Origin: an uncultured Verrucomicrobia subdivision 3 bacterium
Lineage (GTDB): Bacteria; Verrucomicrobiota; Verrucomicrobiia; Limisphaerales; UBA11358
Direction: 5' to 3'
Assembly (NCBI GenBank): GCA_903858275.1
Contig: CAIOIC010000080.1
Span: forward strand, 33,063-97,062
DNA: 64,000 bases
Below, piece after piece: positions 2,406 through 62,709 of this stretch. Each line of letters opens with the position of its first letter. The first letter of the stretch is position 1. The notes under the pieces are model-generated. The model was not told where the DNA came from and made no database searches. It saw only the letters and a program-made list of their open reading frames with translations. The translations under genes and the position numbers were made by a program.

Positions 2406-4556
2406 ATGAAATCATTATTTGTTGCCGGCTTAATCGCATTGGCGTCCGCTGGATATATGCGGGCGGATAATAACCATGCGGCAAATGCCAGCGCCGCCGG
2501 TCAGCGGCAAGTCATTTCCCTCGATGGCGCCTGGCAGATTGCCGAAGGTTCGCTGTCTAATGCGCCGCTGCGTTTTGACCGGACGGTGCCGGTCCCGGGG
2601 CTGGTGGATCTTGCCACACCGCCGTTTGTGGAACCGGGACCGAAGGTGGCGAATCGGAAACAGGTTCCACAGAAAGATTCCCGGCGGGATGCGTTCTGGT
2701 ATCGGCGGACATTTACTCTGACCGCTCCGATTCCGGCGTTGGCGACGCTGAAGGTCGGCAAGGCCATGTTCGGCACGCGAGTAATTCTGAATGGTAAATT
2801 GCTGGGTGACCATGCTCCTTGTTTCACCTCGGGATATTTTGAGGCGAAGGACGCGTTGAAAACCGGGGAGAACGAATTGCTCATCCGGGTTGGCGCGGAT
2901 CGCGATGCGGTGACGGCGGCGGTGCCGTCGGGATTCGATTTTGAGAAGGATCGTTACATTCCCGGCATTTTCGATTCGGTGGAATTAATTTTATGCGGCA
3001 CACCGAACATCGTGAATGTGCAGGTGGCGCCTGATTTGACCAACCAGCAGGCCAGGGTGCGCGTCTGGTTGAAGGGCGTTACGGATGGCGAGGTGACGGT
3101 CGAAGTGCGCGCGGCGAAATCGCGCAAGGTTATCGGCAAATGCAAGGCCCGTTTGACGTCGTCGGCAGAGCCGGTGGTTGATCTTGTATTACCAATGGCC
3201 GGGTGCCGGTGGTGGTCGCCGGAAGACCCGTTTCTTTATGAATTGACCGCGCGAACGGCAGGCGATGAGTTCACAACGCGGTTTGGAATGCGCGAGTTCA
3301 AATTGGATCCGGCGACGGGGCGGGCGATGCTGAACGGTAAACCCTATTTCATGCGCGGCAGCAACATCACGCTCTATAGGTTTTTTGAGGATTCCGAACG
3401 TGGCGTGCTGCCGTGGAGCGAGGCCTGGGTGCGTAAGCTGCACCAGCGCATGAAGGACATGCACTGGAACAGCCTGCGCTACTGCATCGGATTTCCCCCG
3501 GAATTCTGGTATCGAATCGCGGACGAGGAGGGCGTGCTGATTCAGGACGAGTTTCCGATTTGGTTTGGCGGGACCAGGTGGAGCACCTTGTCGAAGGAAT
3601 TGAAGACGGACGAATTGGCGAAAGAATATGCCGAGTGGATGCGCGAGCGCTGGAACCATCCGTCTGTGGTGGTCTGGGATGCAAACAACGAAACGGTCTG
3701 TTCTGAAACCGGGCCTGCCATCCAGTCGGTGCGCGGACTGGATATCTCGAATCGTCCTTGGGACGACAGTTACAATTATCCGCAAGACCCCGGCGACGTT
3801 TACGAATCTCACCCTTACCATTTCAGTAATCCCAAATTCAAGTTGTCTGGGCTTGCCACCGCCAACCCGGTTCCCGCCGGCAACGTCTTCACCAACGACG
3901 GCAAGTACGCGGTCGTCATCAATGAATACGGCTGGCTCTGGCTGAATCGCGATGGCACGCCGACCACGCTGACCAGCAATCTTTATCTCAATCTTCTCGG
4001 CACAAATTCCACGACGGAACAGCGGCGGAATCTTTACGCGCGCTACACCGCCGCCGAAACCGAATTCTGGCGCAGCCACCGGAAAGTCGCTGCCGTCCTG
4101 CATTTTACCGCGCTCGGTTACTCCCGGGCCGACGGTCAGACGAGCGACCATTGGAAAGAAGATGGGGTTGCGAAGCTTGAATGGGAGCCGGAGTTCTACC
4201 GGTATGTCCGGGATTCGTTCGCGCCGATCGGATTGATGGTGGATTTCTTTGCCGAGAAAGCGTTTATTGGAACGGGTGTGAAAATTCCAGTGGTCGCTAT
4301 AAATGATTTATACGAGGCGTGGAAAGGTCCCGTCACGCTTCGCCTCAAGATTGGCGAACGCATCATCTCCAAGCGGCAATTGCCATGCCGGATTGAAGCC
4401 TTGGGCCGGACAAATCTCGTCTTTGATGTCAAACTTCCTGAACAAACTGGAAACTGCACTATTGAAGCCGAGTTGCGCGGCGCGGACGGACATCCAGTTC
4501 GCAGTGTGCGCGAGGTGATCATCGAAACACCTCAGATTTCAGCGCCCGCCAATTAA
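2406..4556 (+). CDS. Glycoside hydrolase family 2 (beta-galactosidase/beta-mannosidase-like), secreted
   Basis: MKSLFVAGLIALASAG reads as a signal peptide when translation starts at 2406 (alternative ATG at 2364). GH2-like blocks are FWYRRTF, VILNGKLLGDH, ENELLIRV, MRGSN, MHWNSLRY...IADEEGVLIQDEF and NHPSVVVWDANNE. Confidence 0.85.
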   Translation: MKSLFVAGLIALASAGYMRADNNHAANASAAGQRQVISLDGAWQIAEGSLSNAPLRFDRTVPVPGLVDLATPPFVEPGPKVANRKQVPQKDSRRDAFWYRRTFTLTAPIPALATLKVGKAMFGTRVILNGKLLGDHAPCFTSGYFEAKDALKTGENELLIRVGADRDAVTAAVPSGFDFEKDRYIPGIFDSVELILCGTPNIVNVQVAPDLTNQQARVRVWLKGVTDGEVTVEVRAAKSRKVIGKCKARLTSSAEPVVDLVLPMAGCRWWSPEDPFLYELTARTAGDEFTTRFGMREFKLDPATGRAMLNGKPYFMRGSNITLYRFFEDSERGVLPWSEAWVRKLHQRMKDMHWNSLRYCIGFPPEFWYRIADEEGVLIQDEFPIWFGGTRWSTLSKELKTDELAKEYAEWMRERWNHPSVVVWDANNETVCSETGPAIQSVRGLDISNRPWDDSYNYPQDPGDVYESHPYHFSNPKFKLSGLATANPVPAGNVFTNDGKYAVVINEYGWLWLNRDGTPTTLTSNLYLNLLGTNSTTEQRRNLYARYTAAETEFWRSHRKVAAVLHFTALGYSRADGQTSDHWKEDGVAKLEWEPEFYRYVRDSFAPIGLMVDFFAEKAFIGTGVKIPVVAINDLYEAWKGPVTLRLKIGERIISKRQLPCRIEALGRTNLVFDVKLPEQTGNCTIEAELRGADGHPVRSVREVIIETPQISAPAN

Positions 4557-4569
4557 TAACAAAAAAGCC

Positions 4570-6387
4570 ATGATCTCAATCATTACCCGAATCAGTATGA
4601 GCGCAATGGCAGGCGTCTTGAGCCTGCTCATCACGGTGCATGAGGCTTCTGCGGCGAAACCCGTGGGCGAACCGCTGATTATCGCCGAGCCGCGCTCGCT
4701 CATCTACTTCGGCCCCGGGGATCCGGCTCCAGCATCCGTGGTCAAGGTGGTGCCGGTCGTCGGTCAGGAGTTTTCCCAGGCGCTGCAGGTGAATACCTTC
4801 GGCGTGGTGGCCAAGCCCAAGACTGATTTTGGGTTATATGCTCGCCTTGCTGCGCCCGTGAATCAGGGCGATGTGTTGTGGATTTCCTTCAAAGCCCGTT
4901 GTCTTGAAGCCAAACGCGAGAGCGGGGAAGCGGCCTTCGAGCTGCGCTTCGACCAGCTCGTGAACAGTAAATACAAATGGCCGCCTTATCTCGAACGCGG
5001 CGTTTCGGTCGGGCGCGAATGGACGGAGGTCAGCATTCCCTACGCGATGGAGCGGAAGGTCGGGCCCGCAGACATGCGCTTGGCGATGAGTTTCGATCAC
5101 TATCCGCAACGTTTTGAAATCGGCCCGGTCACCTTCATCAATTGCGGGTCGAATATCCGCATGACGGATTTGCCCCGCAGCGTGGTGCGCTACGGCGGCT
5201 CCGAGCCGGATGCCCCTTGGCGTGCGGCGGCTGCCGAACGCATCGAGAAGTTTCGCAAAGGCGAGTTGATGCTCAAGGTGATGGACCGTGACGGTCGCCC
5301 TGTGGCCGACGCGGCGGTCGCGGTGCGTATGAGGCGGCTCGACTTCCTGATTGGCACGGCGATTGGCTCCCGAAACATGTTGGACGCGGCCAGCCCGGAC
5401 GCGCAACGCTACCGGGAGATTGTTTCAACCTATTTCAATCACGTCGTCTTCGATAACGACATGAAGTGGCCGCTCTGGGCGGCGCAGAACTACAAGCCCG
5501 AAGCGCTACTCCCTATCTTGGACTGGCTCAAGGAGCATGGCCTGACTGCCCGTGCGACGCCCATGGTGTGGCCCTCCTGGCGCCATCTGCCCGTGTATCT
5601 GAAGGAGTTCCAGAACGACCCTGCCACGCTGCGTCGCGAAGTGTTCAAGAATATCGAGCGGCAGACGCGCGTGATGAAGGGCCGGTATGTTCAATGGGAT
5701 GTGACGAACGAGCTTTTCGCAAATCACGATCTGGTGGATATTCTCGGCCGCGACGAAATCGTGGCGTGGTATCGCGCGGCGCAGGCCGGCGCTCCGGATG
5801 TGAAACTCTGTTACAACGAATACACAATGTTCCATCCCGACGGCCCCGGGCCGGAGCATTTTTTCGAGACCATCAAGTTTCTCAAAGAGAAGGGTGCGCC
5901 GCTCCAGGGACTCGGCGAACAGGCGCATGTCGGCGGTTCACCGCCCGGCATACCCTTGGTGCTGGCTCGGCTGGAGCGTTTTGCAGCGCTGGGCTATCCC
6001 ATCACGATTACCGAGTTCGACATGAACAGCAACGACGAGGATTTTCAGGCCAGCTATATGCGCGACTTCATGACCGCCGTGTTCAGCAATCCCCACACCG
6101 AGGGGTTGGTGCAATGGGGCTTCTGGGCGGGGTCGCACTATTTCCCCAGCGCTGGCCTGTGGAACAAGGATTGGAGTCTACGCAAACACGGACAAGCGTT
6201 TGTTGACATGGTGACCAAGACCTGGCGCACCGATGCCGATGGGCGCACCGCCGCCGATGGCGCCTACGCGACGCGCGGCTTCTACGGCGACTACGACGTC
6301 ACGATCACTCACGCCGGAAAAACCAAAACCGTGCGCCTCAAACTGGCCCCCGGCACCGCCGTGCAAACTATCACCGTTCCGCTGTGA
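4570..6387 (+). CDS. Endo-1,4-beta-xylanase, GH10 catalytic domain with N-terminal CBM4/9/22-like module
   Basis: GH10 signature blocks are WDVTNE, LCYNEYTM, GLGEQAHVG, ITITEFDM and GLVQWGFW. The N-terminal region of about 200 aa is beta-sandwich-like. A signal peptide is present. Confidence 0.85.
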   Translation: MISIITRISMSAMAGVLSLLITVHEASAAKPVGEPLIIAEPRSLIYFGPGDPAPASVVKVVPVVGQEFSQALQVNTFGVVAKPKTDFGLYARLAAPVNQGDVLWISFKARCLEAKRESGEAAFELRFDQLVNSKYKWPPYLERGVSVGREWTEVSIPYAMERKVGPADMRLAMSFDHYPQRFEIGPVTFINCGSNIRMTDLPRSVVRYGGSEPDAPWRAAAAERIEKFRKGELMLKVMDRDGRPVADAAVAVRMRRLDFLIGTAIGSRNMLDAASPDAQRYREIVSTYFNHVVFDNDMKWPLWAAQNYKPEALLPILDWLKEHGLTARATPMVWPSWRHLPVYLKEFQNDPATLRREVFKNIERQTRVMKGRYVQWDVTNELFANHDLVDILGRDEIVAWYRAAQAGAPDVKLCYNEYTMFHPDGPGPEHFFETIKFLKEKGAPLQGLGEQAHVGGSPPGIPLVLARLERFAALGYPITITEFDMNSNDEDFQASYMRDFMTAVFSNPHTEGLVQWGFWAGSHYFPSAGLWNKDWSLRKHGQAFVDMVTKTWRTDADGRTAADGAYATRGFYGDYDVTITHAGKTKTVRLKLAPGTAVQTITVPL

Positions 6388-6420
6388 TTTTGACTTGCAG
6401 GCGTTTCTGAAAGCTGAACC

Positions 6421-8565
6421 ATGAATGCAATGAACCGCCGCCATTTTCTCGTCACGAGTTTAACGGCTGCCTCCGCCGTCACGCTCGGGTTGCGTCTGGA
6501 TGCGGCTGAGGCGGCTGCCTACCAGTTTGACCCGACGCCCGACATCATCAAAGCTCCGAAAAATCCCGCGCTCTGGCCGGAGTTTCGCAAGCAACTGGCC
6601 GAATGGCGCGAGAAGAAACGTGGCGAATTGAACTACTTCGATGCGCTTTATCAGCGTGCTGATTTCGCGTGGGTGCCGGGCAGCTATGTTTGCTATTTCC
6701 TGATGTTGAACGACGAGCGTTTCTACGACGCAACCAGCGGGCGTTATCTCGTCAAGAAATGGCTTGCCGCCTGTCAGCGCGACTTCGGCGGCGTGGACAG
6801 CGTGGTGCTCTGGCACGCGTATCCCCGCATCGGACTCGATGACCGCAACCAGTTTGATTTCTACCGGGACCAGCCCGGTGGCCTGACCGGACTGCGCGCC
6901 GTGGTGGATGAACTGCATCGCGCCGGTGTGCGCTCCTACATTGACTACAACCCGTGGGACAAAGGCACGCGCCGCGAGGCGAAGGGTGACATTGACATGC
7001 TGTGCGAGATTGTGGCCGCGCTGGACGTGGATGGCATTTTTCTGGATACGATGAAGGAAGGCGCGGCGGATTTTCGGAAAATGCTCGACGCCATCCGTCC
7101 GGGCGTGGTGCTGGAGGGCGAAATCTCGCTGCCGATGGAACGCATCGCCGATCATCACATGGGTTGGGCGCAGGGTTTCAAGGACAGCGAGGCACCCGGC
7201 GTGGTGCGGAACAAATGGTTCGAGCGCCGCCACCAGCTTCATCATGTGCATCGCTGGGGGCATGATCGCACGGAATTTTTTCAGACGGCCTTCATGAATG
7301 GCACGGGCACGATGCTTTGGGACAATGTCTTCGGTAGTTGGGTCGGTTACAGCCCGCGCGAGAAATCCATTTTGCGTTCCATGCTGCCCATCCAGCGATG
7401 TTTTACGGCGCTGTTTTCCGGCGAACAATGGACGCCGCTCGTGCCGACAAACAACGCCGAGGTCTTCGCCAGCTTGTGGGAGGGCAACGGCCTCCGGCTG
7501 TGGACGCTGGTGAATCGCGCGACACGGGAAATCAAAGTTGAACTGCCGAATATTGAACTGAAAAATGACGAGCGGCTTTGGGATTTAGTTTTTGGCACCG
7601 AAGTGAAGTTCGCCCGCACGACGATTCGCCCGCGCTGCATCGGCTGTTTCGTGGCTGCGCGAACGGAGGCGCTGGGAAATGATTTCGACAAATTTATCGC
7701 ACGTCAATTTGCCACCGACCAGGCCGCGAACTGGGATTGGAAATTTCCGAACGAAGTCCAAACGAAACTAAAACCCGTCGCGCCCACTCGGGCGTATGCG
7801 CCGGCGAAAGTTCCCGGCGGCATGGCGGTGATTCCCAGCGGAACCTATAAATATGACGTGCGGTTTTGCATCCGCGAATGTGGCTGGTATGAATCCGATC
7901 CCAACACCATTGAACGTTTTGGCTATAACCTTCATCAATTTCGGAATCAGAAAAGCGACGTGGTGCTTCCGGCTTATGCGATGGATTTGACGCCCGTGAC
8001 GAACGCCGAGTTCGCCGCCTTCCTCAAGGCTTCCCGCTACCAGCCGAAGCAGAAAGACAATTTTCTCAAACATTGGCGCAATGGTGCGCCGGTTGGAGGA
8101 CACGAGGATCATCCGGTCGTGTATGTGGATATCGCCGATGCGCGGGCCTACGCCACCTGGGCGGGCAAACGCTTGCCGACGGAGGTGGAATGGCAGTTCT
8201 CTGCGCAAGGTGGCGACGGACGGAAATATCCCTGGGGCAATCAAGAACCAAAACCAAATGACGGCTTGTGCAACGGTTTCGGCACGGACACTACGCCGGT
8301 GAAACAATTTCCCGCCGGTCGTTCACCGTTCTGTCTATATGATCTGTGCGGCAACACTTGGGAGTGGACGGAAAGCGAGCGTTCCGACGGCATCAACCGA
8401 TTCTCCATCCTGCGCGGCGGCTCACATTATCAGGCCGCCGGATCACACTGGTATATGGATGGCGGGCCGCAGGAAGTTTCTTTCGCCTGCAAATATCTGC
8501 TGCAATGGCCGGGCCTCGACCGGTGCGCCACGGTCGGTTTCCGTTGCGTGGTGGATTTGGGGTGA
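6421..8565 (+). CDS. Tat-signal protein: unassigned N-terminal domain of about 450 aa fused to a C-terminal FGE-sulfatase (SUMF1/EgtB/PvdO-type) domain
   Basis: The N-terminus MNRRHFLVTSLTAASA is Tat-like. The C-terminal blocks MAVIPSGTY, RLPTEVEWQFSAQGG, YPWGN, GNTWEWTES and RGGSHY match the FGE-sulfatase fold. I cannot place the N-terminal part (GIFLDTMKEG, possibly TIM-barrel-like). Confidence 0.65.
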   Translation: MNAMNRRHFLVTSLTAASAVTLGLRLDAAEAAAYQFDPTPDIIKAPKNPALWPEFRKQLAEWREKKRGELNYFDALYQRADFAWVPGSYVCYFLMLNDERFYDATSGRYLVKKWLAACQRDFGGVDSVVLWHAYPRIGLDDRNQFDFYRDQPGGLTGLRAVVDELHRAGVRSYIDYNPWDKGTRREAKGDIDMLCEIVAALDVDGIFLDTMKEGAADFRKMLDAIRPGVVLEGEISLPMERIADHHMGWAQGFKDSEAPGVVRNKWFERRHQLHHVHRWGHDRTEFFQTAFMNGTGTMLWDNVFGSWVGYSPREKSILRSMLPIQRCFTALFSGEQWTPLVPTNNAEVFASLWEGNGLRLWTLVNRATREIKVELPNIELKNDERLWDLVFGTEVKFARTTIRPRCIGCFVAARTEALGNDFDKFIARQFATDQAANWDWKFPNEVQTKLKPVAPTRAYAPAKVPGGMAVIPSGTYKYDVRFCIRECGWYESDPNTIERFGYNLHQFRNQKSDVVLPAYAMDLTPVTNAEFAAFLKASRYQPKQKDNFLKHWRNGAPVGGHEDHPVVYVDIADARAYATWAGKRLPTEVEWQFSAQGGDGRKYPWGNQEPKPNDGLCNGFGTDTTPVKQFPAGRSPFCLYDLCGNTWEWTESERSDGINRFSILRGGSHYQAAGSHWYMDGGPQEVSFACKYLLQWPGLDRCATVGFRCVVDLG

Positions 8566-8571
8566 TACGAA

Positions 8572-9834
8572 ATGAATTCCCTTGCCCAGATGAATTCAAA
8601 CAATCCCGATACCAACATGATTAACCGAAGGGGTTTTATCAAAACCTCATCCGTCGTCACCGCCGGCTCACTGCTCGGTGGCAGTCTCGCTTCGCTGGCT
8701 GCTGCGCCAGCGGTCGTAGGCGTGACGCTCTCCGGTCATCGGTTGAAGCGGCCGCTGGCGATTGCGATGTGGGACTTCTCCTGGCTGGAGCGCCGCTGGC
8801 CGGGCGCTGGCTATGAGGATTGGGACCAGGCGTTGGATGAACTCAAGGAGCGCGGCTACGACGCCGTGCGTATTGACGCCTATCCGCATCTGATCGCCGC
8901 TGGTGCCGAGCGCGAATGGGAATTGCTCCCCTGCTGGAACCAGCACGTCTGGGGCAGCCCGGCGCTTTGTCGCGTTCGGGTGCAACCGGCCTTGAACGAG
9001 TTTATCGCCAAGTGCGGAAAGCGCGGCATCCTTGTTGGTCTTTCAACTTGGTTTCGCGAGGACGCCGCGGAAAATCTCTGCACGAAGATCGCCTCGCCGG
9101 AAGAATTGGGGCGCATTTGGAAAGTGACGCTTGATTCGATCAGCCCGGAGTTGCGCCGGCACATCCTGTATGTGGATTTCTGCAACGAGTTTCCTTCGCA
9201 CATCTCGACGCCATTCTTACCCAAGGATTTCAAACGCCATTCGCCAGAGGGGGAACGCTGGATGCGCGATTCGATTGCCGTGGCGCGCCGGGAGTATCTC
9301 CAGTTCAGTTACACCTTTTCCATTGACCGCGAATTTGATTCATTGCGCGAACAGAATACCTCCTTCCTCGATTTTCTGGAGCCGCATGTATGGATGACAA
9401 ACTTCTCCGATTTCTATCAGCAAGTTGGCTACAAGTGGGAAACCTTCGACCCGGTCGGCTACGAGAGAATTGTCGCCAAGGCCGAGACGCTCTATCGCTC
9501 CAAGCCGGCCTATTGGCAATCACGGCTGGAATATGGAATCCACCTTCTCGCCGATTGGTCGCGCGCCAGCGGCAAGCCGCTGATCACTACCGAATGCTGG
9601 GGCGTTGTGGTTTTCAAAGACTGGCCGCTGCTGAATTGGGACTGGGTGAAAGACCTGACCGAACACGGCGTCCGCACAGCCTCTGCGACGGGTTGCTGGG
9701 CGGCGCTGGCCACGAGCAATTTCTGCGGTCCGCAGTTCAAAGGCATGTGGCGCGACATCGCCTGGCACCGGCGGCTTACCGATGTGATTCACCACGGCAA
9801 GCTGCCGAATTATCCCCTCCAATTGAAAAGTTGA
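8572..9834 (+). CDS. Putative glycoside hydrolase, cellulase-like TIM-barrel family, Tat signal
   Basis: Tat-like MINRRGFIKTSSVV. WDFSWLERRWPGAGYEDW, RIDAYPHL and DFCNEFP resemble the sugar-binding cellulase-like family as I remember it. The family assignment is tentative. Confidence 0.45.
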   Translation: MNSLAQMNSNNPDTNMINRRGFIKTSSVVTAGSLLGGSLASLAAAPAVVGVTLSGHRLKRPLAIAMWDFSWLERRWPGAGYEDWDQALDELKERGYDAVRIDAYPHLIAAGAEREWELLPCWNQHVWGSPALCRVRVQPALNEFIAKCGKRGILVGLSTWFREDAAENLCTKIASPEELGRIWKVTLDSISPELRRHILYVDFCNEFPSHISTPFLPKDFKRHSPEGERWMRDSIAVARREYLQFSYTFSIDREFDSLREQNTSFLDFLEPHVWMTNFSDFYQQVGYKWETFDPVGYERIVAKAETLYRSKPAYWQSRLEYGIHLLADWSRASGKPLITTECWGVVVFKDWPLLNWDWVKDLTEHGVRTASATGCWAALATSNFCGPQFKGMWRDIAWHRRLTDVIHHGKLPNYPLQLKS

Positions 9835-9836
9835 AT

Positions 9837-12158: not shown

Positions 12159-12194
12159 TGATGCGCCTCCGCATGGCAACTTGATTTCCTCACA

Positions 12195-14764: not shown

Positions 14765-14777
14765 CTTCGAAAAACTT

Positions 14778-52036: not shown

Positions 52037-52046
52037 GGAGAATACC

Positions 52047-52754: not shown

Positions 52755-52761
52755 TTAAGCC

Positions 52762-53388: not shown

Positions 53389-53390
53389 TC

Positions 53391-53672
53391 ATGAACGCTT
53401 TTGAAATCATCAAGACCGTCCGCCTCACGGAAAAAGGCACGCGTCAGGCCGAGAAGTATAATCAATACACCATCGTTGCTGACCGCCTCGCGACCAAGCC
53501 GCAGATCCGGCAGGCCGTGCAGGAACTGTTCAAGGTCAAGGTCATCCGCGTCAACACGCTGAACGTCCGCGGCAAAGCCCGCCGCCAGCGCACCGCTCAG
53601 GCTGGCAAGACGAACGACTGGAAGAAAGCCATCGTCACGTTGAAGGACGGCGATAAGATTGTTTTGACCTAG
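53391..53672 (+). CDS. rplW: 50S ribosomal protein L23
   Basis: 93 aa, with IIKTVRLTEKGT...YTIVAD..ATKPQIRQAVQELFKVKV..VNTLN. It holds the expected position after rplD. Confidence 0.93.
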   Translation: MNAFEIIKTVRLTEKGTRQAEKYNQYTIVADRLATKPQIRQAVQELFKVKVIRVNTLNVRGKARRQRTAQAGKTNDWKKAIVTLKDGDKIVLT

Positions 53673-54850: not shown

Positions 54851-54853
54851 TTT

Positions 54854-55600: not shown

Positions 55601-56880
55601 TGCGCTTGGAGCGCCTGCGCTGGCTGATATTGGGGTTGCTGTTTTTTTCCACGGTCATCAATTACGTGGACCGGCAGGCGCTCTCGGTGTTGCTGCCGAC
55701 GTTGCGCGGTGAACTGCATCTCTCCAGCGCGGACTATGGCACGATCACGACGATGTTCATGCTGGCCTACACCGTGGCGCAGATTCCTTCCGGCATGTGG
55801 CTGGACAAAGTGGGAACGCGTTTTGGCTTCAGTCTCTTCGTTGGTTTGTGGTCGGCGGCCGCGATGTTGCACGCCTTTGCCCGGGGTGCGGTGAGCTTGG
55901 GCGTGTTTCGTGTCTTGCTTGGTTTTAGCGAGGCGGGCAACTGGCCAGCGGGCGGTAAGACGGTGGCAAATTGGTTTCCGCAAAAACGCCGGGCGTTGAC
56001 GATGGCCATCTTTGACGGTGGTTCAGCGGTGGGCGCAATCGCCGCTCCGCCGCTGGTGGCGCTGCTTGCGCTGCAGTTCGGCTGGCGTTCGGCGTTCATT
56101 GTGACGGGGTTGCTGGGGTTGATCTGGCTGGCTGGCTGGCTGTGGATTTATCGCGCGCCGGAAAATCATCCGTGGCTTTCCGCCGAAGACCGCGCGCAGG
56201 TTCTGGCTGATGGCGGAGGCGCCGTTCAGGTCAAGAAGGCGTCGTTCGGCGATGCGTTCCGAAGAATCATTGGCGAGCGGCAGCTCTGGGGTCTGTTTGT
56301 CACCCGCATGGTCGCGACGCCCGTGTGGTGGTTTTATGTTTTCTGGCTGCCGGATTACTTGAGCAAGGGACGAGGCTTCTCGCTCAAGGAAATTGGCTTC
56401 TTCGCGTGGATTCCCTATCTGACGGTGGACTTGGGCAAGATGACCGGCGGCGCGTTGTCGGATGCTTTGCTGGGCCGGGGTCGGAGCGCGACGTTCGCGC
56501 GCAAGTCGGTGATGGTTGGTGGCGCACTGGCGATGATGGGCGGTTTGTTCGTCGTGAGCGCGCCCAACGCAGCGGCGGCGATTGCATGGGCGAGCGTGGC
56601 GACCTTTGGTTTCGGCATGTGGAGCGCGAACATTCTCGCGCTGCATGCGGATGTATTTTCTTCCGATACCATGGGCACGGCGGTAGGTTTGACCGGGACT
56701 GGCGCGAGCCTCGGCGGGGCGATTTTTACTTATGTCGTCGGTCAGGTGGTGGACAAATCGGGCTACGCGCCGGTATTCTGGATGGTCGGAACTCTGGCCT
56801 TGGCGGCGTGCCTCGTGCTTTTGTTTGGCGTCGGGCGCGTGGAGAGGCTTAATCAACAAAATATTTCGAATGAAAACTGA
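55600..56880 (+). CDS. MFS transporter, ACS/hexuronate (ExuT)-like
   Basis: LFFSTVINYVDRQALSVLLPTL and a 12-TM profile. TGATG overlap with the upstream gene. Confidence 0.75.
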   Translation: MRLERLRWLILGLLFFSTVINYVDRQALSVLLPTLRGELHLSSADYGTITTMFMLAYTVAQIPSGMWLDKVGTRFGFSLFVGLWSAAAMLHAFARGAVSLGVFRVLLGFSEAGNWPAGGKTVANWFPQKRRALTMAIFDGGSAVGAIAAPPLVALLALQFGWRSAFIVTGLLGLIWLAGWLWIYRAPENHPWLSAEDRAQVLADGGGAVQVKKASFGDAFRRIIGERQLWGLFVTRMVATPVWWFYVFWLPDYLSKGRGFSLKEIGFFAWIPYLTVDLGKMTGGALSDALLGRGRSATFARKSVMVGGALAMMGGLFVVSAPNAAAAIAWASVATFGFGMWSANILALHADVFSSDTMGTAVGLTGTGASLGGAIFTYVVGQVVDKSGYAPVFWMVGTLALAACLVLLFGVGRVERLNQQNISNEN

Positions 56881-57736
56881 ACCAGTGAACATTTCTTTCT
56901 TCAAAAACAAAACCGCCGTTGTGACCGGTGCGGGCGGGACGCTTTGTTCTGCCGTGGCGGTGGAACTTGCCCGGCTCGGCGCGAAAGTGGCCTTGCTCGG
57001 CCGGACTCCGGAAAAATTGGAATCCGTCACCGCCCTGATTCGCAAAGCCGGCGGCACGGCCCTGCCGCTGGTGGTGGATGTGACGGATGTCGCTGCGGTC
57101 GAAGCTGCAAGCAAAACCATCACGAGAGAACTTGGCCTGTGTGATCTTCTGGTCAACGGTGCCGGAGGCAACCGCAACGATGCGGTGACGAGCACGGTGG
57201 AGTATCAGCCCGCAGAGATCGCGGCGGACCGGCCGGAAAATCTGCGCGGTTTTTTTAATCTCAATCCCGACATTTTGTTGGATGTGATCAAGCTGAACAC
57301 CATCGGCACTTTGATACCTAGCCAGGTTTTCGGGCGGGAAATGGCCCGCCGGGGCCGCGGCTCGATTGTGAACTTCGCCTCGATGAACAGCTATCGTCCG
57401 CTTTCGAAAAATCTCGCTTACTCTTTGTCCAAAGCCGGGGTGGTAAACCTTACCCAATGGCTGTCAACGTATCTCGCGCCCGCCGGCATCCGCGTGAACG
57501 CGGTTGCACCAGGATTTTTTGCCAATGATCGCAGCCGAAAGATTTTGATGACTGAAGACGGAGGCTTGACTGCGCGCGGCCAGAACGTCATGGCGCATAC
57601 GCCGATGAAACGCTTTGGCGAAGCGCAGGATTTGCTCGGGGCGGTGTGCTGGTTGCTCGATGACGAGCGGGCCGGGTTTGTCACCGGAATCACGGTGGCG
57701 GTTGATGGCGGTTTCTCGTCTTCATCGGGAGTGTAA
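56870..57736 (+). CDS. Short-chain dehydrogenase/reductase (possibly D-mannonate/fructuronate oxidoreductase type)
   Basis: TGAGGTLCSAV (TGxxGxxG) and YSLSKAG (YxxxK). The ATG at 56870 overlaps the transporter 3' end by 11 nt; the ORF-track start at 56732 lies inside the transporter gene. Confidence 0.8.
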   Translation: MKTEPVNISFFKNKTAVVTGAGGTLCSAVAVELARLGAKVALLGRTPEKLESVTALIRKAGGTALPLVVDVTDVAAVEAASKTITRELGLCDLLVNGAGGNRNDAVTSTVEYQPAEIAADRPENLRGFFNLNPDILLDVIKLNTIGTLIPSQVFGREMARRGRGSIVNFASMNSYRPLSKNLAYSLSKAGVVNLTQWLSTYLAPAGIRVNAVAPGFFANDRSRKILMTEDGGLTARGQNVMAHTPMKRFGEAQDLLGAVCWLLDDERAGFVTGITVAVDGGFSSSSGV

Positions 57737-57795
57737 GACGCAATAACTGTTGAATTATGTCGAGCAGAAATCTGCCGATTGAAGAAAAATGAATT

Positions 57796-59244
57796 ATGAA
57801 AACACGCAAAGCATTACAATGGACAATGGCGGCTGCAATGTGCTGTCTCGTATCGGTCACCGTCGTGGCGGGGCCGAAGATTGATGCGTCGCCGGACCGG
57901 GCGAAGACCGCTTTGAATCTGGGGCTGAAGCAGCTCGGCACCATCAAGCCGCGCAGTGCGAAGGAGATTTCCGGTTCCAACTGGACGCTGGGCTGCGAGA
58001 CGCTGGACCGCGATTTTGCGGATTACCAGCAATATAAAGAATACATCGTGCCGCTGGGCATCAAGACCATCCGGTTGCAAGGCGGTTGGGCCAAGACGGA
58101 AAAGGTGAAAGGCCAGTATGATTTCACCTGGCTGGATACGATAATTGACGACGCGCGTGGTCGGGGCTTGAACATCATTTTGGAGACCGACTACGGCAAT
58201 ACCAATTACGTTGGCGGCGGCGGCACGGATTTGGCGGGTGGCTTTCCGACTTCCGAGGAAGCGCTCGCGGCTTGGGATCGTTGGGTGGAGACCATGGCCG
58301 CGCGTTACAAGGGCAAGGTCCGCGACTGGGCGATGTGGAATGAGCCGGACATCAATAAAAAGCACCAGCCGGGTGACATCGCCCCGTTCAACATCCGTAC
58401 AGCGGAGATTGTCCGGCGTGTGATTCCCGACGCGCGGATTGCTGGGCTTTCGTTGGCCAGTTCCAGCCCGAAGTTCTTCGAGAGTTGTCTGAAGCTGCTG
58501 GCGGACAAGGGAAAAGTGGATCTTTTCAACTGGTTCATCTATCACGGATATGAGTTTAATCCGGACAGTTCATACCAGAATGTCGAAGAGTTGAAGGCGA
58601 CGCTGGCAAAATATTCAACCAAGGCAAAAATGCGGCAAGGCGAGAACGGTTGTCCGTCGGAAGTGGCGACGAAGTTCGCGCTCTCCTTTCACCCGTGGAC
58701 GGAATACAGCCAGGCCAAGTGGGATTTGCGCCGGATGCTGGGTGACCTAGGCCACGATGTGGAATCGGCCGTCTTCACGATCTGTGATTTCAATCATCTG
58801 GGACGCGAAATCAACCGCAAGGGGCTGCTTTGGGCGACGGCGGACAAGCAGGTTGAAAAAATCAAACTTGCCTACTACGCGGTGCAGAATTGCGTGGCGG
58901 TGTTCGACGACACGCTCGAGCGCGTGAAAGAGCCGGTTGTTGGCGTGGTGTATGACAAGGCGACGGCAAGCTTCGCCTACCGCAACAAGAAGTCAGGGCA
59001 GAACCTGGTGGTGCTGTGGAGCAACTTGGGGACGCCGGACGACTCGTTTGTGACGCGGCCAGCCCAAGTCGTGGTGAAAAATCTCGCCGTCAAGGAGCCG
59101 GTCTGGGTGGATCTGGTTTCCGGCCGGATTTACGAAATTCCGGCGGAACGCATCGTGAAAGCGGGTGAGTTCACCATATTCAAAGAAATTCCTCTCTACG
59201 ACTCACCGGTGCTGATTGCAGAGAAAGAATTGGTGCTGAAGTAG
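57796..59244 (+). CDS. Secreted clan GH-A (TIM-barrel) glycoside hydrolase, GH5/GH39-like
   Basis: Signal peptide. The NEP acid/base-type motif is WAMWNEPD. The later GENGCPSE is a candidate nucleophile region. The family is not resolved. Confidence 0.55.
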   Translation: MKTRKALQWTMAAAMCCLVSVTVVAGPKIDASPDRAKTALNLGLKQLGTIKPRSAKEISGSNWTLGCETLDRDFADYQQYKEYIVPLGIKTIRLQGGWAKTEKVKGQYDFTWLDTIIDDARGRGLNIILETDYGNTNYVGGGGTDLAGGFPTSEEALAAWDRWVETMAARYKGKVRDWAMWNEPDINKKHQPGDIAPFNIRTAEIVRRVIPDARIAGLSLASSSPKFFESCLKLLADKGKVDLFNWFIYHGYEFNPDSSYQNVEELKATLAKYSTKAKMRQGENGCPSEVATKFALSFHPWTEYSQAKWDLRRMLGDLGHDVESAVFTICDFNHLGREINRKGLLWATADKQVEKIKLAYYAVQNCVAVFDDTLERVKEPVVGVVYDKATASFAYRNKKSGQNLVVLWSNLGTPDDSFVTRPAQVVVKNLAVKEPVWVDLVSGRIYEIPAERIVKAGEFTIFKEIPLYDSPVLIAEKELVLK

Positions 59245-59287
59245 AACGCGCTTTGTGGGCGCGAGAAGGAAACCGAGCGAAGACAGT

Positions 59288-61486
59288 ATGAACTCAGCGG
59301 TCAAACGGATTATCGTGATAGTGCTGTTGTTTGCTGTTGGCGCTTCGCTGCTGGTCACGCCAGTCACCGCCTTTGAGTTGGTCGCTCCCACTCAAACCGC
59401 CACCGTGTTCGTGCCGACAAGCGAACCGGAATGCGTGCGGCTGGCAGCACAAGACCTCATCGGTGACGCGCAGAAAATCACCGGCCAAACACCAGCCATC
59501 GTCCAACGCGCGGACGATGTCGCCATCGTGATTGTCTCGCTGAACCGGCCTGAATCCGTTGCGCTGCTGGAGAAACTCGCGCCCGGTTTCGGTGACGCGC
59601 TGAAAGGCCAGTGGGAAGCCTATCGCGTCGAGGAAGTCGGCCGGCGGCTCATCATTGCCGGCAGCGACGAGCGCGGCACGATGTTCGGCCTCTACGCTTT
59701 CATTGAGAAATATCTCGGTGTGGACCCGCTTTACTATTGGGCCGGGCGACCGCCGAAAAAACGGGCGACGCTGGCGTGGGACAGCGTCAAGCTTAGTTCC
59801 GGCGAACCGACGTTTCGGTTTCGCGGCTGGTTCATCAATGACGAAGATCTGTTGACCGGATGGAAAGCGGGCAGCGGCAAACGTCGGATAGATTATCCCT
59901 ATTACGGGCAGGTGGTGAACCGCGACGTGATGCGAGCGGTGGCTGAGGCGCTGGTGCGCAGCCGGTTCAATCTGATCATCCCCGCCAGCTTTGTGGACAT
60001 CATGAATCCGCCGGAGGCGGCGTTGGTGCAGGAGTGCGCGCGGCGCGGGGTGTTCGTGTCGCAGCATCACGTCGAGCCGCTGGGGGTGAGCGCCTTCAGC
60101 TATTTCAACTATTGGAAGCAGCGCGGAAAGGATTTGAAGTATTCCTATTTCAGTCATCCCGCCGAGGTGCGCGAGGTGTGGCGTGCTTACGCGGAAAAGT
60201 GGGCGGCTTATCCCAACGTGATCTGGCAGCTCGGCCTGCGCGGCATTGCCGACCGGCCCATGTGGATGGCTGATACTAACACGCCGCAGTCCGACGCGGA
60301 TCGTGGGCGCTTGATTTCCGAGGCGATGGCGGCGCAGGTGAAAATTCTTGACGAAATTTGTCCGCGTCAGCCGCGCTATCTCTCTACCACGCTTTGGGCG
60401 GAAGGGTCGGAACTGAACCAGAAGAAGCTGCTTACGATACCAGAGGGAACAATTGTTATCTTCGCGGATAATTCACCCGGCTGGAAATGGCAGCGGGATT
60501 TCTACTCGACGCCGCGCAATCCGAAGAACACCTACGGCGTCTATTATCATCACGGACTGATCGGCTCCGGCCCGCATCTGGCGCAGGTGCCTTCGCCGCA
60601 CAAGACTTTCGAGTGCCTTAAGATCGCCGTTGAGAACGGCGCGGGAGAGTATGCCATTTTCAACGTCTCCAATATCCGCGAGTTTGTTCTGGGCATTGAT
60701 GCGACGGCGAAAATGACGTGGCGGATGGACTCCTTCGATCCCGATGCCTGGCTGGCGGAATGGGTGCGGGCGCGGTTTTCGCGGCAGCAGGACGAAATCG
60801 TGAACGCCTATCATATCTATTTCAATGCCTGGCAAATTCACGACGCTCAGCAAGTTCCATTTTTGATGGATGGTCAGATGTTTAATACTGGCAATAAAAG
60901 TCTCGCCCAAATCGCCCAGCGGCTTCAGGGCAAACGGGTTGAAGGCGGTGTCGTTTCAGAAAAGAACCGGCAAGTAGCCCGCCCGTCCAAAACGGCTGGC
61001 GAGGCTGCGCCAGTGGTGGCGGATGCGTTTTGGGCCGGCATCAGCGACATGTTTCCTTCCAGCCCCAGACGGGAGACGGTTTTGCGGTTGGCGAAGCAGA
61101 AGGCCGGGCTTGGCTTGGCGCTGCTTCATGCGCGAACGCCGGCCGCTGCGCTGCCGGAACCGGAAGCGGCTTTTCTGAACGACAATCTGATTTATCAGGC
61201 GGCCATCATGTTTCAAACTTGCGAATGGCTGGAGCAAGTTCTGGTCGCGCAGGAGGCGCTGGAGCTTGATAACCGGCTAGCCTGCGGCGATGCGCTCGCG
61301 CGGGCGGAAGCGGCTTTTGCGCAGATTCCAGTTTTGGCGGAGAACTATTGTCGCGGCCAATGGGAAAACTGGTATCGTGAATGCACCAAACTCAACGTGA
61401 CCGCGACCATGAACCGAACCCGTGAAGTCCTGCAACTGGCCCGGCAGACATCGCTGCCCAAAGGTTCAGGCAATAACCAGCCATGA
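59288..61486 (+). CDS. GH115-like alpha-glucuronidase (xylan 4-O-methylglucuronate-releasing type)
   Basis: LIIAGSDERGTMFGLYAFIEKYLGVDPLYYWAG and FRFRGWFINDEDLL match my memory of the GH115 N-terminal and catalytic blocks. The ATG at 59288 gives a signal-anchor N-terminus. Confidence 0.65.
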   Translation: MNSAVKRIIVIVLLFAVGASLLVTPVTAFELVAPTQTATVFVPTSEPECVRLAAQDLIGDAQKITGQTPAIVQRADDVAIVIVSLNRPESVALLEKLAPGFGDALKGQWEAYRVEEVGRRLIIAGSDERGTMFGLYAFIEKYLGVDPLYYWAGRPPKKRATLAWDSVKLSSGEPTFRFRGWFINDEDLLTGWKAGSGKRRIDYPYYGQVVNRDVMRAVAEALVRSRFNLIIPASFVDIMNPPEAALVQECARRGVFVSQHHVEPLGVSAFSYFNYWKQRGKDLKYSYFSHPAEVREVWRAYAEKWAAYPNVIWQLGLRGIADRPMWMADTNTPQSDADRGRLISEAMAAQVKILDEICPRQPRYLSTTLWAEGSELNQKKLLTIPEGTIVIFADNSPGWKWQRDFYSTPRNPKNTYGVYYHHGLIGSGPHLAQVPSPHKTFECLKIAVENGAGEYAIFNVSNIREFVLGIDATAKMTWRMDSFDPDAWLAEWVRARFSRQQDEIVNAYHIYFNAWQIHDAQQVPFLMDGQMFNTGNKSLAQIAQRLQGKRVEGGVVSEKNRQVARPSKTAGEAAPVVADAFWAGISDMFPSSPRRETVLRLAKQKAGLGLALLHARTPAAALPEPEAAFLNDNLIYQAAIMFQTCEWLEQVLVAQEALELDNRLACGDALARAEAAFAQIPVLAENYCRGQWENWYRECTKLNVTATMNRTREVLQLARQTSLPKGSGNNQP

Positions 61487-62709
61487 ATGAATTCATCCAT
61501 CCTGATTTTCTGCTGAAGACCGCCACCGCCCGCCGGCTGTATCACGAGTTTGCCGAAAGTTTGCCGGTGATTGACTACCATAATCACATCAGCGCCCGGG
61601 ATTTGGCCGGGGATCGCGTATTTGATAACATTACGCAGTTGTGGATTTCCAGCGATCCCTATAAACACCGCGCGATGCGGATTGCGGGCGTGTCGGAGCG
61701 GCTCATAACCGGCAAAGCAAGCGAACGCGAGAAGTTCGACGCTTGGGCGGCCGCGGCGTCGCAGACGCTAGGCAACCCGCTTTATCATTGGACGGCGTTG
61801 GAATTAAAACGCTATTTTGGCATCTCGGAATTGCTTTCACCCGATACGGCAGACCGGATTTGGAACCAATGCAACGAGCTGTTGCGTTCGCCCAACCACA
61901 CGGCGCGCGGGTTGATCAAATCGGCCAACGTCGAATATCTCTGCACTTCGGATCAGTTGACTGACGATCTCGGAGTGCACGCACGGCTGGCCCAATCGGA
62001 CTTCGCCACGCGGGTGGTGCCTTCGCTGCGGGTGGATGACGTGGCGGCGCTGGATCAAATGCAATTGACGGAAAGGCTGGATGCATTTGCCCGTTTGGGT
62101 TGCAAACTTGCGGATCATTCCGTTGTGGAATTCGATTCGGAAGGACTGCGGAAGCTGGCGGGTGAATACGCCCGCCGCGGCTGGATTTTGCAGCTTCACA
62201 TCGGCGCTCAGCGCCAGACCAGCACCCGCCTTCGGCAACTGGCCGGCCCGGCAGGCGGTTATGCGACCATTGGCAAAGCGTGTGATATTCCCGGCCTTTG
62301 CCGGTTTCTGGATGAAGCGGAGAAAGCCGGCGGCCTGCCGCGCATCATTTTATTTCCATTGAACCCCGCCGATTACGCTGTGCTGGCGACCTTGACCGGC
62401 TCGTTCACCGAGGATGGCGTGCGCGGAAAAATCCAACTTGGCCCCGCCTGGTGGTATAACGACCACGCGCTGGGCATCCGGCAGCATCTCGACGCGCTTG
62501 CCAGCTACGGGTTGCTGTCCGCGTTCATCGGCATGACCACCGACTCGCGCAGTTTGCTTTCGATGGTGCGCCATGAATATTTTCGCCGCGTCTTGTGCGA
62601 CTGGCTGGGCGATCAGGTGGAAGCCGGCGCGATGCCGGATGACCGCCAGTTGCTGGGGCAGCTTGTGAAAGCGGTAGCTTACGAGAACGCGCGCCGGGCG
62701 ATTCTTTAA
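61483..62709 (+). CDS. uxaC: Glucuronate isomerase (short form)
   Basis: FIHPDFLLKTATARRLYHEFAESLPVIDYHNHI and DPYKHRAMRIAGVSERLITG parallel E. coli UxaC (FLL....ARRLYH...P..DYH.H; W.AMR..GV.E...TG). ATGA overlap with the upstream gene. Confidence 0.85.
   Translation: MNEFIHPDFLLKTATARRLYHEFAESLPVIDYHNHISARDLAGDRVFDNITQLWISSDPYKHRAMRIAGVSERLITGKASEREKFDAWAAAASQTLGNPLYHWTALELKRYFGISELLSPDTADRIWNQCNELLRSPNHTARGLIKSANVEYLCTSDQLTDDLGVHARLAQSDFATRVVPSLRVDDVAALDQMQLTERLDAFARLGCKLADHSVVEFDSEGLRKLAGEYARRGWILQLHIGAQRQTSTRLRQLAGPAGGYATIGKACDIPGLCRFLDEAEKAGGLPRIILFPLNPADYAVLATLTGSFTEDGVRGKIQLGPAWWYNDHALGIRQHLDALASYGLLSAFIGMTTDSRSLLSMVRHEYFRRVLCDWLGDQVEAGAMPDDRQLLGQLVKAVAYENARRAIL

Follow-up and report, generated by a model that had tools for sequence, protein, structure and literature searches.

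The subject of this work is a group of sugar-uptake, oxygenase and corrinoid methyltransferase genes located in a 64-kb stretch of DNA (contig CAIOIC010000080.1, positions 33,063 to 97,062; hereafter the window) from an uncultured Verrucomicrobia subdivision 3 bacterium, which may together serve the uptake and O-demethylation of methylated monosaccharides. Long open reading frames (ORFs) of the window, taken as the longest non-overlapping ones plus a few alternatives, were scanned with Pfam and NCBIfam models, and the loci of genomes and metagenome contigs used for comparison are designated L001–L176. Three gene blocks were distinguished (Table 1). Block 1 (2364–20873, plus strand) comprises 13 co-directional genes with gaps of at most 63 bp or overlapping stop and start codons, in the order GH2-like, GH10, FGE-sulfatase-domain protein, PF12876, GH120-insertion/CBM6/beta-helix protein, Sugar_tr, cytochrome P450 (P450), URO-D-332, GFO/IDH/MocA, TIM-barrel protein, DUF1638, RACo and AraC, where GH stands for a glycoside hydrolase family and the four paralogues with URO-D domain are named by their lengths. 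Block 2 (29190–20981, minus strand) runs from two GH29 genes through an SSF symporter, a RhaM-like gene and an FA_hydroxylase (FAH) gene to URO-D-412, with an AraC gene diverging from it. In block 3 (30276–36603, both strands) homocysteine S-methyltransferase and PurU are encoded on the minus strand, divergently from a corrinoid protein, URO-D-343, an MtaB homologue and URO-D-423. Stop and start codons overlap between the transporter and P450, between DUF1638, RACo and AraC, and between FAH and URO-D-412, the latter two genes sharing one base. The scans placed the genes listed in an earlier note on this DNA at or near the positions it had given them, and added to its list homocysteine S-methyltransferase, PurU, Sugar_tr, GFO/IDH/MocA, the TIM-barrel protein and three AraC regulators.

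Table 1. Genes of the window considered in this study, with predicted products and the basis of each prediction
Feature	Position	Strand	Basis and remarks
GH2-like	2364-4556	+	Pfam
GH10	4570-6387	+	Pfam
FGE-sulfatase-domain protein	6421-8565	+	Pfam
PF12876 cellulase-like	8572-9834	+	Pfam
GH120-insertion/CBM6/beta-helix protein	about 9837-12158	+	Pfam
MFS Sugar_tr monosaccharide transporter	12195-13616	+	Pfam Sugar_tr E 6.3e-118; stop overlaps P450 start
CYP236-family cytochrome P450	13613-14764	+	phmmer to PDB 6G5O/6G5Q
URO-D-332 (short paralogue, 332 aa, MtaA/CmuA-like)	14778-15776	+	Pfam URO-D 1.2e-56
GFO/IDH/MocA oxidoreductase	15819-16901	+	Pfam
Xylose-isomerase-like TIM-barrel protein	16921-17742	+	Pfam
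DUF1638 protein, predicted accessory factor of corrinoid reactivation	17735-18511	+	Pfam 6.3e-36
RACo (2Fe-2S, middle, ASKHA domains)	18484-20148	+	Pfam RACo_C_ter 1.5e-69, Raco_middle 2.9e-45, Fer2
AraC regulator	20145-20873	+	Pfam; orthologues in L013, L049, L107, L172, L175
URO-D-412 (long paralogue, 412 aa)	20981-22219	-	Pfam URO-D 8.7e-25
FA_hydroxylase (FAH) di-iron oxygenase	22219-23229	-	Pfam 1.9e-21; histidine boxes
RhaM-family (PF05336) mutarotase-like protein	23269-23685	-	Pfam 3.2e-24
SSF sodium:solute symporter	23700-25565	-	Pfam
GH29 alpha-L-fucosidase	25586-27493	-	Pfam
GH29 alpha-L-fucosidase with F5/8 type C domain	27517-29190	-	Pfam
AraC regulator with cupin sensor domain, divergent from fucosidase operon	29266-30279	+	Pfam
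Homocysteine S-methyltransferase (PF02574)	30276-31184	-	Pfam, NCBIfam
Formyl-THF (tetrahydrofolate) deformylase PurU	31197-32033	-	Pfam, NCBIfam; adjoins corrinoid protein gene
Corrinoid (B12-binding) protein	32058-32843	+	Pfam B12-binding (PF02310), B12-binding_2 (PF02607); NCBIfam MtgC/MtaC-like
URO-D-343 (short paralogue, 343 aa)	32862-33893	+	Pfam 1.2e-14
MtaB-family zinc methyltransferase	33903-35285	+	Pfam 3.5e-163
URO-D-423 (long paralogue, 423 aa)	35332-36603	+	Pfam 1.2e-11
UxuA	53879-54850	+	Pfam
GH115	59255-61486	+	Pfam
UxaC	61483-62709	+	Pfam

URO-D-412 turned out to be a widespread protein. A scan of species-representative genomes, one per species, gave 492 relatives, and the best 80 of these 492, being 64–92% identical to the window protein, belong to Verrucomicrobiota, Planctomycetota, Lentisphaerae/Victivallales, Kiritimatiellae, Bacillota (including the isolate Sporanaerobium hydrogeniformans XHS1971), Spirochaetales, Bacteroidota (Alistipes, Rikenellaceae), Sumerlaeia and Anaerolineae. 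The spread covers at least eight phyla, and many of the host lineages are, as we assume, strict anaerobes. Gene neighbours were counted in 85 loci, 54 of which have 3 kb of flanking sequence on both sides. The most constant of them is a RhaM-like gene, registered within 3 kb in 47 of the 85, followed by GH29 (21), AraC (20), SSF (14), FAH (11), corrinoid protein (6) and RACo (5). The set of SSF and GH29 genes observed in the window is repeated beside the URO-D orthologue in L007, L012, L013, L019, L028, L036, L069, L070, L078 and L080. Transporters vary with the phylum: SSF is found in the Planctomycetes-Verrucomicrobia-Chlamydiae (PVC) group, while in Bacillota and Spirochaetes the neighbour is a sugar ABC transporter composed of periplasmic sugar-binding protein, permease and ATPase. 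The Sporanaerobium locus is compact and holds nothing besides AraC / URO-D, RhaM, permease, binding protein and ATPase. A metagenome-assembled genome (MAG) of Rikenellaceae has the order GH29, RhaM, RhaT, URO-D with sulfatases nearby, and in an Alistipes locus GH2, GH106 and two GH28 genes surround URO-D. Genes of SDR and enolase-superfamily (MR_MLE) proteins, also found among the neighbours, would fit non-phosphorylative deoxyhexose catabolism. Since three kinds of transporter differ by phylum, the substrate is expected to be an imported free sugar, and the simplest reading is that URO-D-412 acts on a sugar of the 6-deoxyhexose type and works without oxygen. The connection of corrinoid methyltransferase genes with deoxyhexose uptake and fucosidase genes, which the earlier note had perceived in the window, thus holds for many relatives and for other phyla as well.

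As to the reaction, residues H303-x-C305 and H390 of URO-D-412 show no variation among 78 orthologues belonging to many phyla. In the alignment they correspond to the zinc ligands of MtaA, and the AlphaFold model (predicted local distance difference test score, pLDDT, 73.8) has MtaA as the best fold match, with uroporphyrinogen decarboxylases coming next. Sequence similarity to characterised methyltransferases is weak (E 1.5e-4 for MtaA and 6.7e-3 for CdmB). On account of its family, its metal site and the occasional direct adjacency to corrinoid genes (the corrinoid protein is encoded immediately upstream in L014, L015 and L081), URO-D-412 most likely removes a methyl group onto corrinoid, which would make it a candidate methyl-(deoxy)hexose:corrinoid methyltransferase (MT I). 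The long URO-D proteins might also be metal-dependent enzymes of deoxyhexose catabolism (decarboxylase, isomerase or hydratase) forming one step in a series with the RhaM-like protein and, in loci that have it, FAH, and in that case oxygenase and URO-D would perform consecutive steps instead of being alternatives. We regard this possibility as improbable. The one-base overlap of the FAH and URO-D-412 genes and a Methylacidiphilales MAG in which the two stand alone with an AraC gene are in line with it, as are the weak E-values just given, the scores of cofactor-free decarboxylases of the URO-D fold, almost as good as that of MtaA, and the lack of a corrinoid protein gene within 10 kb of URO-D-412 in 79 of the 85 loci. 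However, uroporphyrinogen decarboxylases lack the zinc site of MtaA with which the H-x-C...H motif aligns, and NCBIfam ranks MtaA/CmuA models ahead of HemE. Besides the three loci with direct adjacency, the full corrinoid set is contiguous with URO-D-412 in L049, and URO-D-423 follows the corrinoid protein gene in L175. Moreover, FAH is missing from 74 of the 85 loci, including those of presumed strict anaerobes, in which a partner that needs O2 would be useless.

Association with RhaM is not limited to close relatives of URO-D-412: among distant long paralogues, only 21–35% identical to it, 17 of 26 have a RhaM-like gene within 1.5 kb. A second long URO-D paralogue is present in the same locus in L007, L019, L029, L033, L035, L041, L080, L081, L084, L089, L099, L101, L107 and L161. 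The combination of RhaM and long URO-D thus gives the impression of a two-gene module that recurs with several specificities and in which RhaM may be a partner of the URO-D enzyme and not a mutarotase alone. The RhaM-like protein of the window starts with a lipoprotein-type signal MKNKLNYALPLLALVVLSGC, which suggests export. Mutarotases of the RhaM family are known as cytoplasmic proteins, and the Sporanaerobium copy (115 aa) has no N-terminal signal extension. It is conceivable, and we propose it tentatively, that the URO-D-412 family, usually accompanied by a RhaM-like protein, represents an unrecognised widespread corrinoid O-demethylase for methylated monosaccharides, to which the operons of facultative Verrucomicrobia add interchangeable oxygenases of four families. 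O-methyl-fucose or O-methyl-rhamnose from pectin (rhamnogalacturonan II, RG-II), algal or cyanobacterial glycans would be its likely substrates.

The remaining parts of a corrinoid system are distributed between blocks 1 and 3. The corrinoid protein carries a DxHxxG motif in the form DLHDIG; its longest ORF includes about 50 extra N-terminal residues with a hydrophobic stretch, and, judging from an orthologue length of about 211 aa (L175), translation probably begins near 32208. The MtaB homologue matches PDB entry 2I2X with E 1.6e-93 and conserves the residues corresponding to Glu164, Cys220 and Cys269, the zinc ligands of this structure. Alignment to 4AY7 indicated that both short paralogues, URO-D-332 and URO-D-343, keep the H-x-C...C zinc ligands of MtaA, and URO-D-332 matches the NCBIfam model mtaA_cmuA at 8.9e-46, below the cut-off. 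Both long paralogues, 39% identical to each other, have the H-x-C...H motif. Equivalog cut-offs of NCBIfam were missed by the relatives of MtaB (420.6 versus 720 bits), MtaC (125.7 versus 420) and MtaA (118.7 versus 400). Identity of the URO-D paralogues with HemE was rejected, as three of them score 54.6, 23.2 and 27.2 bits against a TIGR01464 cut-off of 303 and the fourth gives no match. An ATP-dependent reductive activator is represented by the middle and C-terminal domains of RACo together with Fer2. Ether-cleaving O-demethylase methyltransferases MtvB, OdmB, VdmB and MtoB belong to the URO-D superfamily (PMC13222342), and the window paralogues share this membership with the MT I component of three-component O-demethylases; to which of them the MT I role belongs we can only infer. 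Taken together, the long URO-D pair with MtaB, the short MtaA-like URO-D pair, the single corrinoid protein and RACo with DUF1638 make up the pattern of a multi-substrate corrinoid methyltransferase system, in which URO-D-332 is a candidate methyl-corrinoid:acceptor methyltransferase (MT II) and URO-D-423 a second candidate for MT I. A link through adenosylcobalamin from fucose to propanediol was set aside, since the B12 protein is of MtaC/MetH type and comes with RACo.

The two corrinoid clusters of the window are one system, because their orthologues form one operon in L175, where URO-D-332, DUF1638, RACo, AraC, corrinoid protein and URO-D-423 (70–82% identical) are contiguous and the 76%-identical URO-D-423 orthologue stands directly after the gene of the 211-aa corrinoid protein. 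The order in L049 is URO-D-412, homocysteine methyltransferase, RACo, DUF1638, URO-D-343, corrinoid protein, AraC; in L107 it is FAH, URO-D-412, AraC, corrinoid protein, URO-D-343, MtaB; and in L099 RhaM, FAH, corrinoid protein, MtaB, short URO-D, URO-D-412. In L013, the closest named relative (a MAG labelled Verrucomicrobia subdivision 3, with 92–97% protein identity for most shared genes and lower values, 70–89%, for GH29b, RhaM and SSF), the same modules are rearranged yet adjacent. URO-D-343 is always located 3' of the corrinoid protein gene (the pair is present in L013, L049 and L107), L172 combines an 84%-identical Sugar_tr orthologue with orthologues of URO-D, DUF1638, RACo and AraC, and the AraC gene of the 17735–20873 segment travels with DUF1638 and RACo in relatives, while orthologues of the regulator at 29266–30279 were found upstream of the fucosidase-type operon in many loci. 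As the modules stay adjacent in L013, L049, L099, L107 and L175 despite rearrangement, their co-localisation is conserved, and the outcome that the earlier note had named as refuting its idea, a co-localisation not conserved in any relative, did not occur. The view that the window brings together, by chance, unrelated catabolic islands and a housekeeping corrinoid system within 64 kb of a gene-dense glycan degrader agrees poorly with this persistence, with the stop/start overlaps joining transporter to P450, DUF1638 to RACo and AraC, and FAH to URO-D-412, and with the recurrence of the URO-D-412/RhaM/GH29 association across phyla. We find it very improbable, even though the module order differs already in L013, the P450 and FAH families are mostly encoded alone elsewhere, and the GH115/uxaC block, situated behind housekeeping genes, has no linkage to these genes in relatives.

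A more serious contender, though in our opinion still an unlikely one, is a general one-carbon (C1) and methionine module combining a methanol methyltransferase with a B12-dependent methionine synthase of the split type, with non-sugar donors for the URO-D proteins (methanol from pectin or xylan esters, methoxylated aromatics derived from lignin or humic matter, methylated thiols) and with glycan genes adjacent owing to shared regulation or chance. In Phaeobacter the parts of the split methionine synthase were defined by fitness data (PMC5764234), and homocysteine methyltransferase (PF02574), B12-binding protein, RamA-like RACo and DUF1638 of the window are exactly such parts; Ruegeria, growing under oxic conditions, uses a single corrinoid protein for synthesis of methionine as well as for demethylation of betaine (PMC12478193). 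In addition, the three residues that bind zinc in the methanol enzyme are all retained in MtaB, and characterised methyltransferases of URO-D type all use aromatic ethers, haloalkanes or methyl-cobamide (PMC13222342). The source of the DNA fits as well. Identical P450 and URO-D proteins in the same gene order are present on many ENA metagenome contigs named BUCK21-1, the label of a stratified-freshwater-lake data set (Buck et al. 2021), so that, judging from record names, the source appears to be stratified lakes. Against such a module speaks the bond of URO-D-412 with RhaM, GH29 and three transporter kinds in at least eight phyla, including the compact Sporanaerobium operon, as well as the 17 of 26 distant long paralogues adjoining a RhaM-like gene and the use of Sugar_tr in the transporter-P450-URO-D operon. 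It is also partly compatible with sugar demethylation: the methionine-synthase parts can be a shared core. Because these parts match the split enzyme of Phaeobacter and Ruegeria, the corrinoid core may double as methionine synthase, and methionine would be one likely methyl sink.

Among solved structures the best match of the P450 found by phmmer is 6G5O/6G5Q (P450ZoGa; E 4.8e-109 over the full length, the next match having 2e-39). P450ZoGa of marine Flavobacteriia is the CYP236A enzyme that demethylates free 6-O-methyl-D-galactose, and its structure was solved with the sugar (PMC6292453). Identity of 48% over 378 aligned residues passes the family threshold of the P450 naming rule (>40%) and stays below that of subfamily CYP236A (>55%). 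The heme-binding motif FGFGAHLCLG, with its heme-thiolate ligand, and the acid-alcohol motif AGGRDT align to P450ZoGa, residues D223 and T224 of the latter motif being invariant in 121 homologues. In P450ZoGa Glu62, Arg66 and Gln70 hydrogen-bond sugar O2 to O4, while Val58, Phe73 and Met270 surround the methyl group (PMC6292453). Out of the contact set reported as invariant in CYP236A (V58, E62, R66, Q70, F73, G220, L267, M270) five residues, E62, R66, Q70, G220 and L267, are kept in the window protein and invariant across the 121 homologues, and three are changed. The start of the P450 gene overlapping the stop of a monosaccharide transporter fits a free-sugar substrate. The window P450 is thus a candidate O2-dependent methyl-sugar demethylase, and the earlier proposal of it as a methyl-ether-cleaving enzyme gained weight, since it belongs to the sole P450 family known to demethylate a sugar. 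Unlike CYP236A, it comes from a freshwater Verrucomicrobium and not from an agar or porphyran locus, and its neighbours are genes of the corrinoid system. In L173 P450 also adjoins URO-D with overlapping stop and start codons and is preceded there by a GFO gene. GFO/IDH/MocA and xylose-isomerase-like TIM genes recur beside short URO-D or P450 (L173 7494–8825; L004 37–891, where the TIM-barrel gene precedes a 334-aa URO-D). In sugar pathways of other kinds, pairs of GFO/IDH/MocA and TIM-barrel proteins break C-O bonds through an oxidation/beta-elimination mechanism, and here they could be a further ether-handling route or a part of downstream catabolism. On an Opitutaceae contig (L011, 1090–1968 and 4945–6087) the gene of a P450 homologue (77%) comes after that of an MFS transporter, and PurU is encoded at a distance of 3 kb; this layout echoes the window and has a possible link to formaldehyde/formate handling.

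The second oxygenase, FAH, has histidine boxes H200x4H205x3H209, H218xxHH and H294xxHH and four moderately hydrophobic segments; its comparison with NCBIfam and solved structures gave no match and no closer assignment. The FA_hydroxylase superfamily includes alkylglycerol monooxygenase and sterol C4-methyl oxidase, shares an eight-histidine di-iron motif, and comprises both ether cleavage by hydroxylation of the carbon next to oxygen and oxidation of methyl groups. The FAH of the window has this motif, but differs from these two enzymes in the absence of detectable specific similarity; known members act on lipids, and a sugar substrate would be new. Each of the 14 metagenome loci with an FAH of ≥75% identity, on a contig reaching far enough downstream to include URO-D, has the order RhaM-FAH-URO-D, which was also found in L005, L007, L012, L013, L019 and L027, while three Lentisphaerae-type loci (L029, L033, L042; 55–60% identity) have URO-D followed by FAH. 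FAH can be regarded as a candidate O2-dependent demethylase. Oxygenases of other families occupy equivalent positions in relatives: beside short URO-D and Sugar_tr one finds P450 in the window and L173, a 760-aa fusion of FA_desaturase membrane di-iron, Rieske and NAD-binding reductase domains in L172 (11093–13375), and the Fe(II)/2-oxoglutarate dioxygenase PhyH in L176 (9043–9798), the last two located between the URO-D-332 orthologue and Sugar_tr. Altogether four unrelated oxygenase families (P450, FA_hydroxylase, desaturase-Rieske fusion and PhyH) stand beside methyltransferases in different genomes. As these families take equivalent positions, URO-D-412 occurs alone in presumed anaerobes and oxygenases occur alone elsewhere, oxygenases and methyltransferases would fit alternative oxic and anoxic ways to the same job, although a sequential pathway is also compatible with the data. 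The replacement of P450 by other families beside short URO-D agrees with the earlier suggestion of unrelated ether-cleaving chemistries, and the position of P450 itself is not conserved at about 77% identity. For FAH as a participant, the conserved pairing with URO-D stands and its solitary occurrence in most genomes does not favour it.

Based on these data we are inclined, by a modest degree, to believe that the 12.2–36.6 kb region encodes AraC-regulated uptake and O-demethylation of methylated monosaccharides. The sugars would be released by neighbouring glycosidases, imported and demethylated, and the genes would probably be induced by substrate. In the O2-dependent route hydroxylation of the O-methyl group by the CYP236-family P450 would lead to its loss as formaldehyde, and FA_hydroxylase may perform the same hydroxylation chemistry in the fucosidase operon. 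In the O2-independent route a zinc-dependent methyltransferase would take the methyl group off the sugar oxygen and load it onto Co(I) of the corrinoid protein; URO-D-412, URO-D-423 and/or the MtaB homologue are candidates for this step. A second methyltransferase would pass it on, for which the short MtaA-like URO-D paralogues and homocysteine S-methyltransferase, giving methionine, are suitable, while RACo and DUF1638 would re-reduce the oxidised cofactor. The presence of PurU suggests release of formate from oxidised C1 units. As an extension, the MtaB homologue might activate the sugar methyl ether directly or use methanol eliminated from 4-O-methylglucuronate. O-methyl sugars, probably methylated fucose or rhamnose in the case of URO-D-412, are putative substrates deduced from gene content, as is the distribution of roles among the proteins; methyl-fucose, RG-II and other substrates named earlier were guesses.

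Several points weigh against this interpretation. All functional assignments are derived from homology and gene neighbourhood, and we found no precedent for corrinoid-dependent cleavage of an alkyl (sugar) methyl ether. The missing corrinoid gene near most copies of URO-D-412, described above, belongs here as well, and no pterin-binding (PF00809) methyltransferase was detected among the ORFs scanned in the window; MtaA-like URO-D proteins and the PF02574 homocysteine methyltransferase are possible substitutes, or the pterin-binding piece may lie elsewhere in the genome. For FAH, about 60 homologues (65–74% identity) stand alone, clustering of their neighbours revealed no conserved one, and enzymes of the FA_hydroxylase superfamily usually act on lipids. 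The P450 cluster contains no gene of ferredoxin or ferredoxin reductase, the partners with which CYP236A enzymes demethylate 6-O-methyl-D-galactose, and three P450 homologues at about 77% identity sit in unrelated neighbourhoods; the idea that P450 always accompanies URO-D was dropped, since contexts anchored on P450 are not conserved. Finally, the three altered contacts of the P450, V58P, F73I/V and M270I, are changed consistently across essentially all of the 121 Verrucomicrobial homologues, and replacement of V58 or F73 by alanine abolishes binding in P450ZoGa (PMC6292453). With these changes fixed, the window P450 may belong to a sister clade of P450s that bind sugars, and its exact substrate could be other than 6-O-methyl-galactose.

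Comparison with characterised corrinoid systems shows where the proposed one would be usual and where it would not. With three-component O-demethylases and the haloalkane system (MtvB/OdmB/VdmB, MtoB, CdmBCA; PMC13222342) it shares a URO-D-superfamily methyltransferase of 410–430 aa, a small B12-binding protein, a second methyltransferase, an ATP-dependent reductive activator and several MT I paralogues apparently using one corrinoid protein. Unlike them, it shows marginal similarity (to CdmB, as given above) and the H-x-C...H motif, is proposed to act on alkyl (sugar) methyl ethers instead of aryl ethers or haloalkanes, has no pterin-binding MT II nearby, and its hosts are fermentative or facultative glycan degraders rather than acetogens or methanogens. 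MtaABC of Methanosarcina (2I2X, 4AY7) has in common with it the three zinc ligands of MtaB, an MtaC-like corrinoid protein and H-x-C...C in short URO-D, and its activation of CH3-OH by zinc is chemically the nearest parallel to an activation of CH3-O-sugar; in contrast to MtaABC, the window proteins score below equivalog cut-offs, their genes are embedded in fucosidase and sugar-transport operons, and genes of coenzyme M biosynthesis are neither seen in the window nor expected in the lineage. Split methionine synthase and MtgBCDE of Roseobacters (PMC5764234, PMC12478193) likewise include separate PF02574, B12-binding protein, a RamA-like activator with ferredoxin domain and DUF1638, but the PF00809 piece is not in the window, and the donor enzymes are here of MtaB and URO-D type, not betaine methyltransferases of the MttB family. 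The shared corrinoid protein of Ruegeria works in aerobes, so its coexistence with oxygenases is not contradictory (PMC12478193). Against this background the new elements would be the proposed substrate class of corrinoid enzymes, the URO-D and RhaM module, which is conserved in sugar operons across many phyla, and the combination of oxygenases with methyltransferases.

A sugar that carries a methyl ether is blocked from catabolism. Such sugars are constituents of pectin (RG-II), glucuronoxylan and the polysaccharides of algae and cyanobacteria, all of them broken down in guts and sediments under largely anoxic conditions, and to our knowledge, within the literature searched, the only enzyme described to remove sugar methyl ethers is the O2-requiring P450 of marine Flavobacteriia. 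No description of corrinoid- or cobalamin-dependent sugar demethylation, or of URO-D beside fucosidase or mutarotase genes, was found in a search that left most subscription journals uncovered. If the proposed function is true, anaerobes of guts, sediments and anoxic lake water gain a route to methyl-sugars which P450 cannot serve, corrinoid methyltransferases acquire a new class of substrates, and glycan breakdown becomes linked to B12 demand, methionine synthesis and C1 flow. The pairing of oxygenase and methyltransferase may then exemplify O2-dependent and O2-independent solutions kept in one operon. Concrete material for tests is provided by the cultured isolate Sporanaerobium hydrogeniformans XHS1971 and by gut Alistipes/Rikenellaceae lineages, which carry the gene.

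The 12.2–36.6 kb region is preceded by a co-directional GH cluster (2.4–12.2 kb; 2364–12158), which continues, with gaps of 2–63 bp between genes, into the transporter-P450 operon. The connection was observed in the same species alone (L001–L003) and not at other P450/URO-D loci. A scan of 2–21.5 kb for promoters and terminators, intended to set operon limits, gave counts at the level of shuffled sequence and was uninformative. Downstream of block 3 there are housekeeping genes (rpoD, Kdo transferase, mfd, fusA, S10-L3-L4-L23), behind which, about 17 kb away from the region, a hexuronate/glucuronoxylan block (53879–62709, plus strand) encodes UxuA, an RraA-like aldolase, an MFS transporter, SDR, a GH39/42-like protein, GH115 and UxaC. 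The earlier note connected GH115, uxaC and uxuA, and hence 4-O-methylglucuronoxylan, with the demethylation genes. This connection found no support: GH115, UxuA and GH10 (above weak similarity) are absent from about 170 loci anchored on URO-D and FAH, where UxaC appeared once (L059, 39%), and the few P450-anchored loci contain none of the four, so that these genes, GH10 included, were rejected as conserved partners. Demethylation of 4-O-methylglucuronate would logically be needed before UxaC can act, and nothing ties it to the enzymes considered here.

Two further features of the surroundings deserve mention. In the 714-aa protein encoded at 6421–8565 (plus strand), inside the GH2/GH10/GH120 cluster, the sole recognised domain is the C-terminal FGE-sulfatase domain (formylglycine-generating-enzyme-like), and no sulfatase gene is present in the 64-kb window. 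The S10 ribosomal operon (51731–53672, plus strand) ends after S10, L3, L4 and L23, with L2, S19 and the rest not at this site, and uxuA (53879) with other sugar-acid genes is placed directly 3' of these genes.

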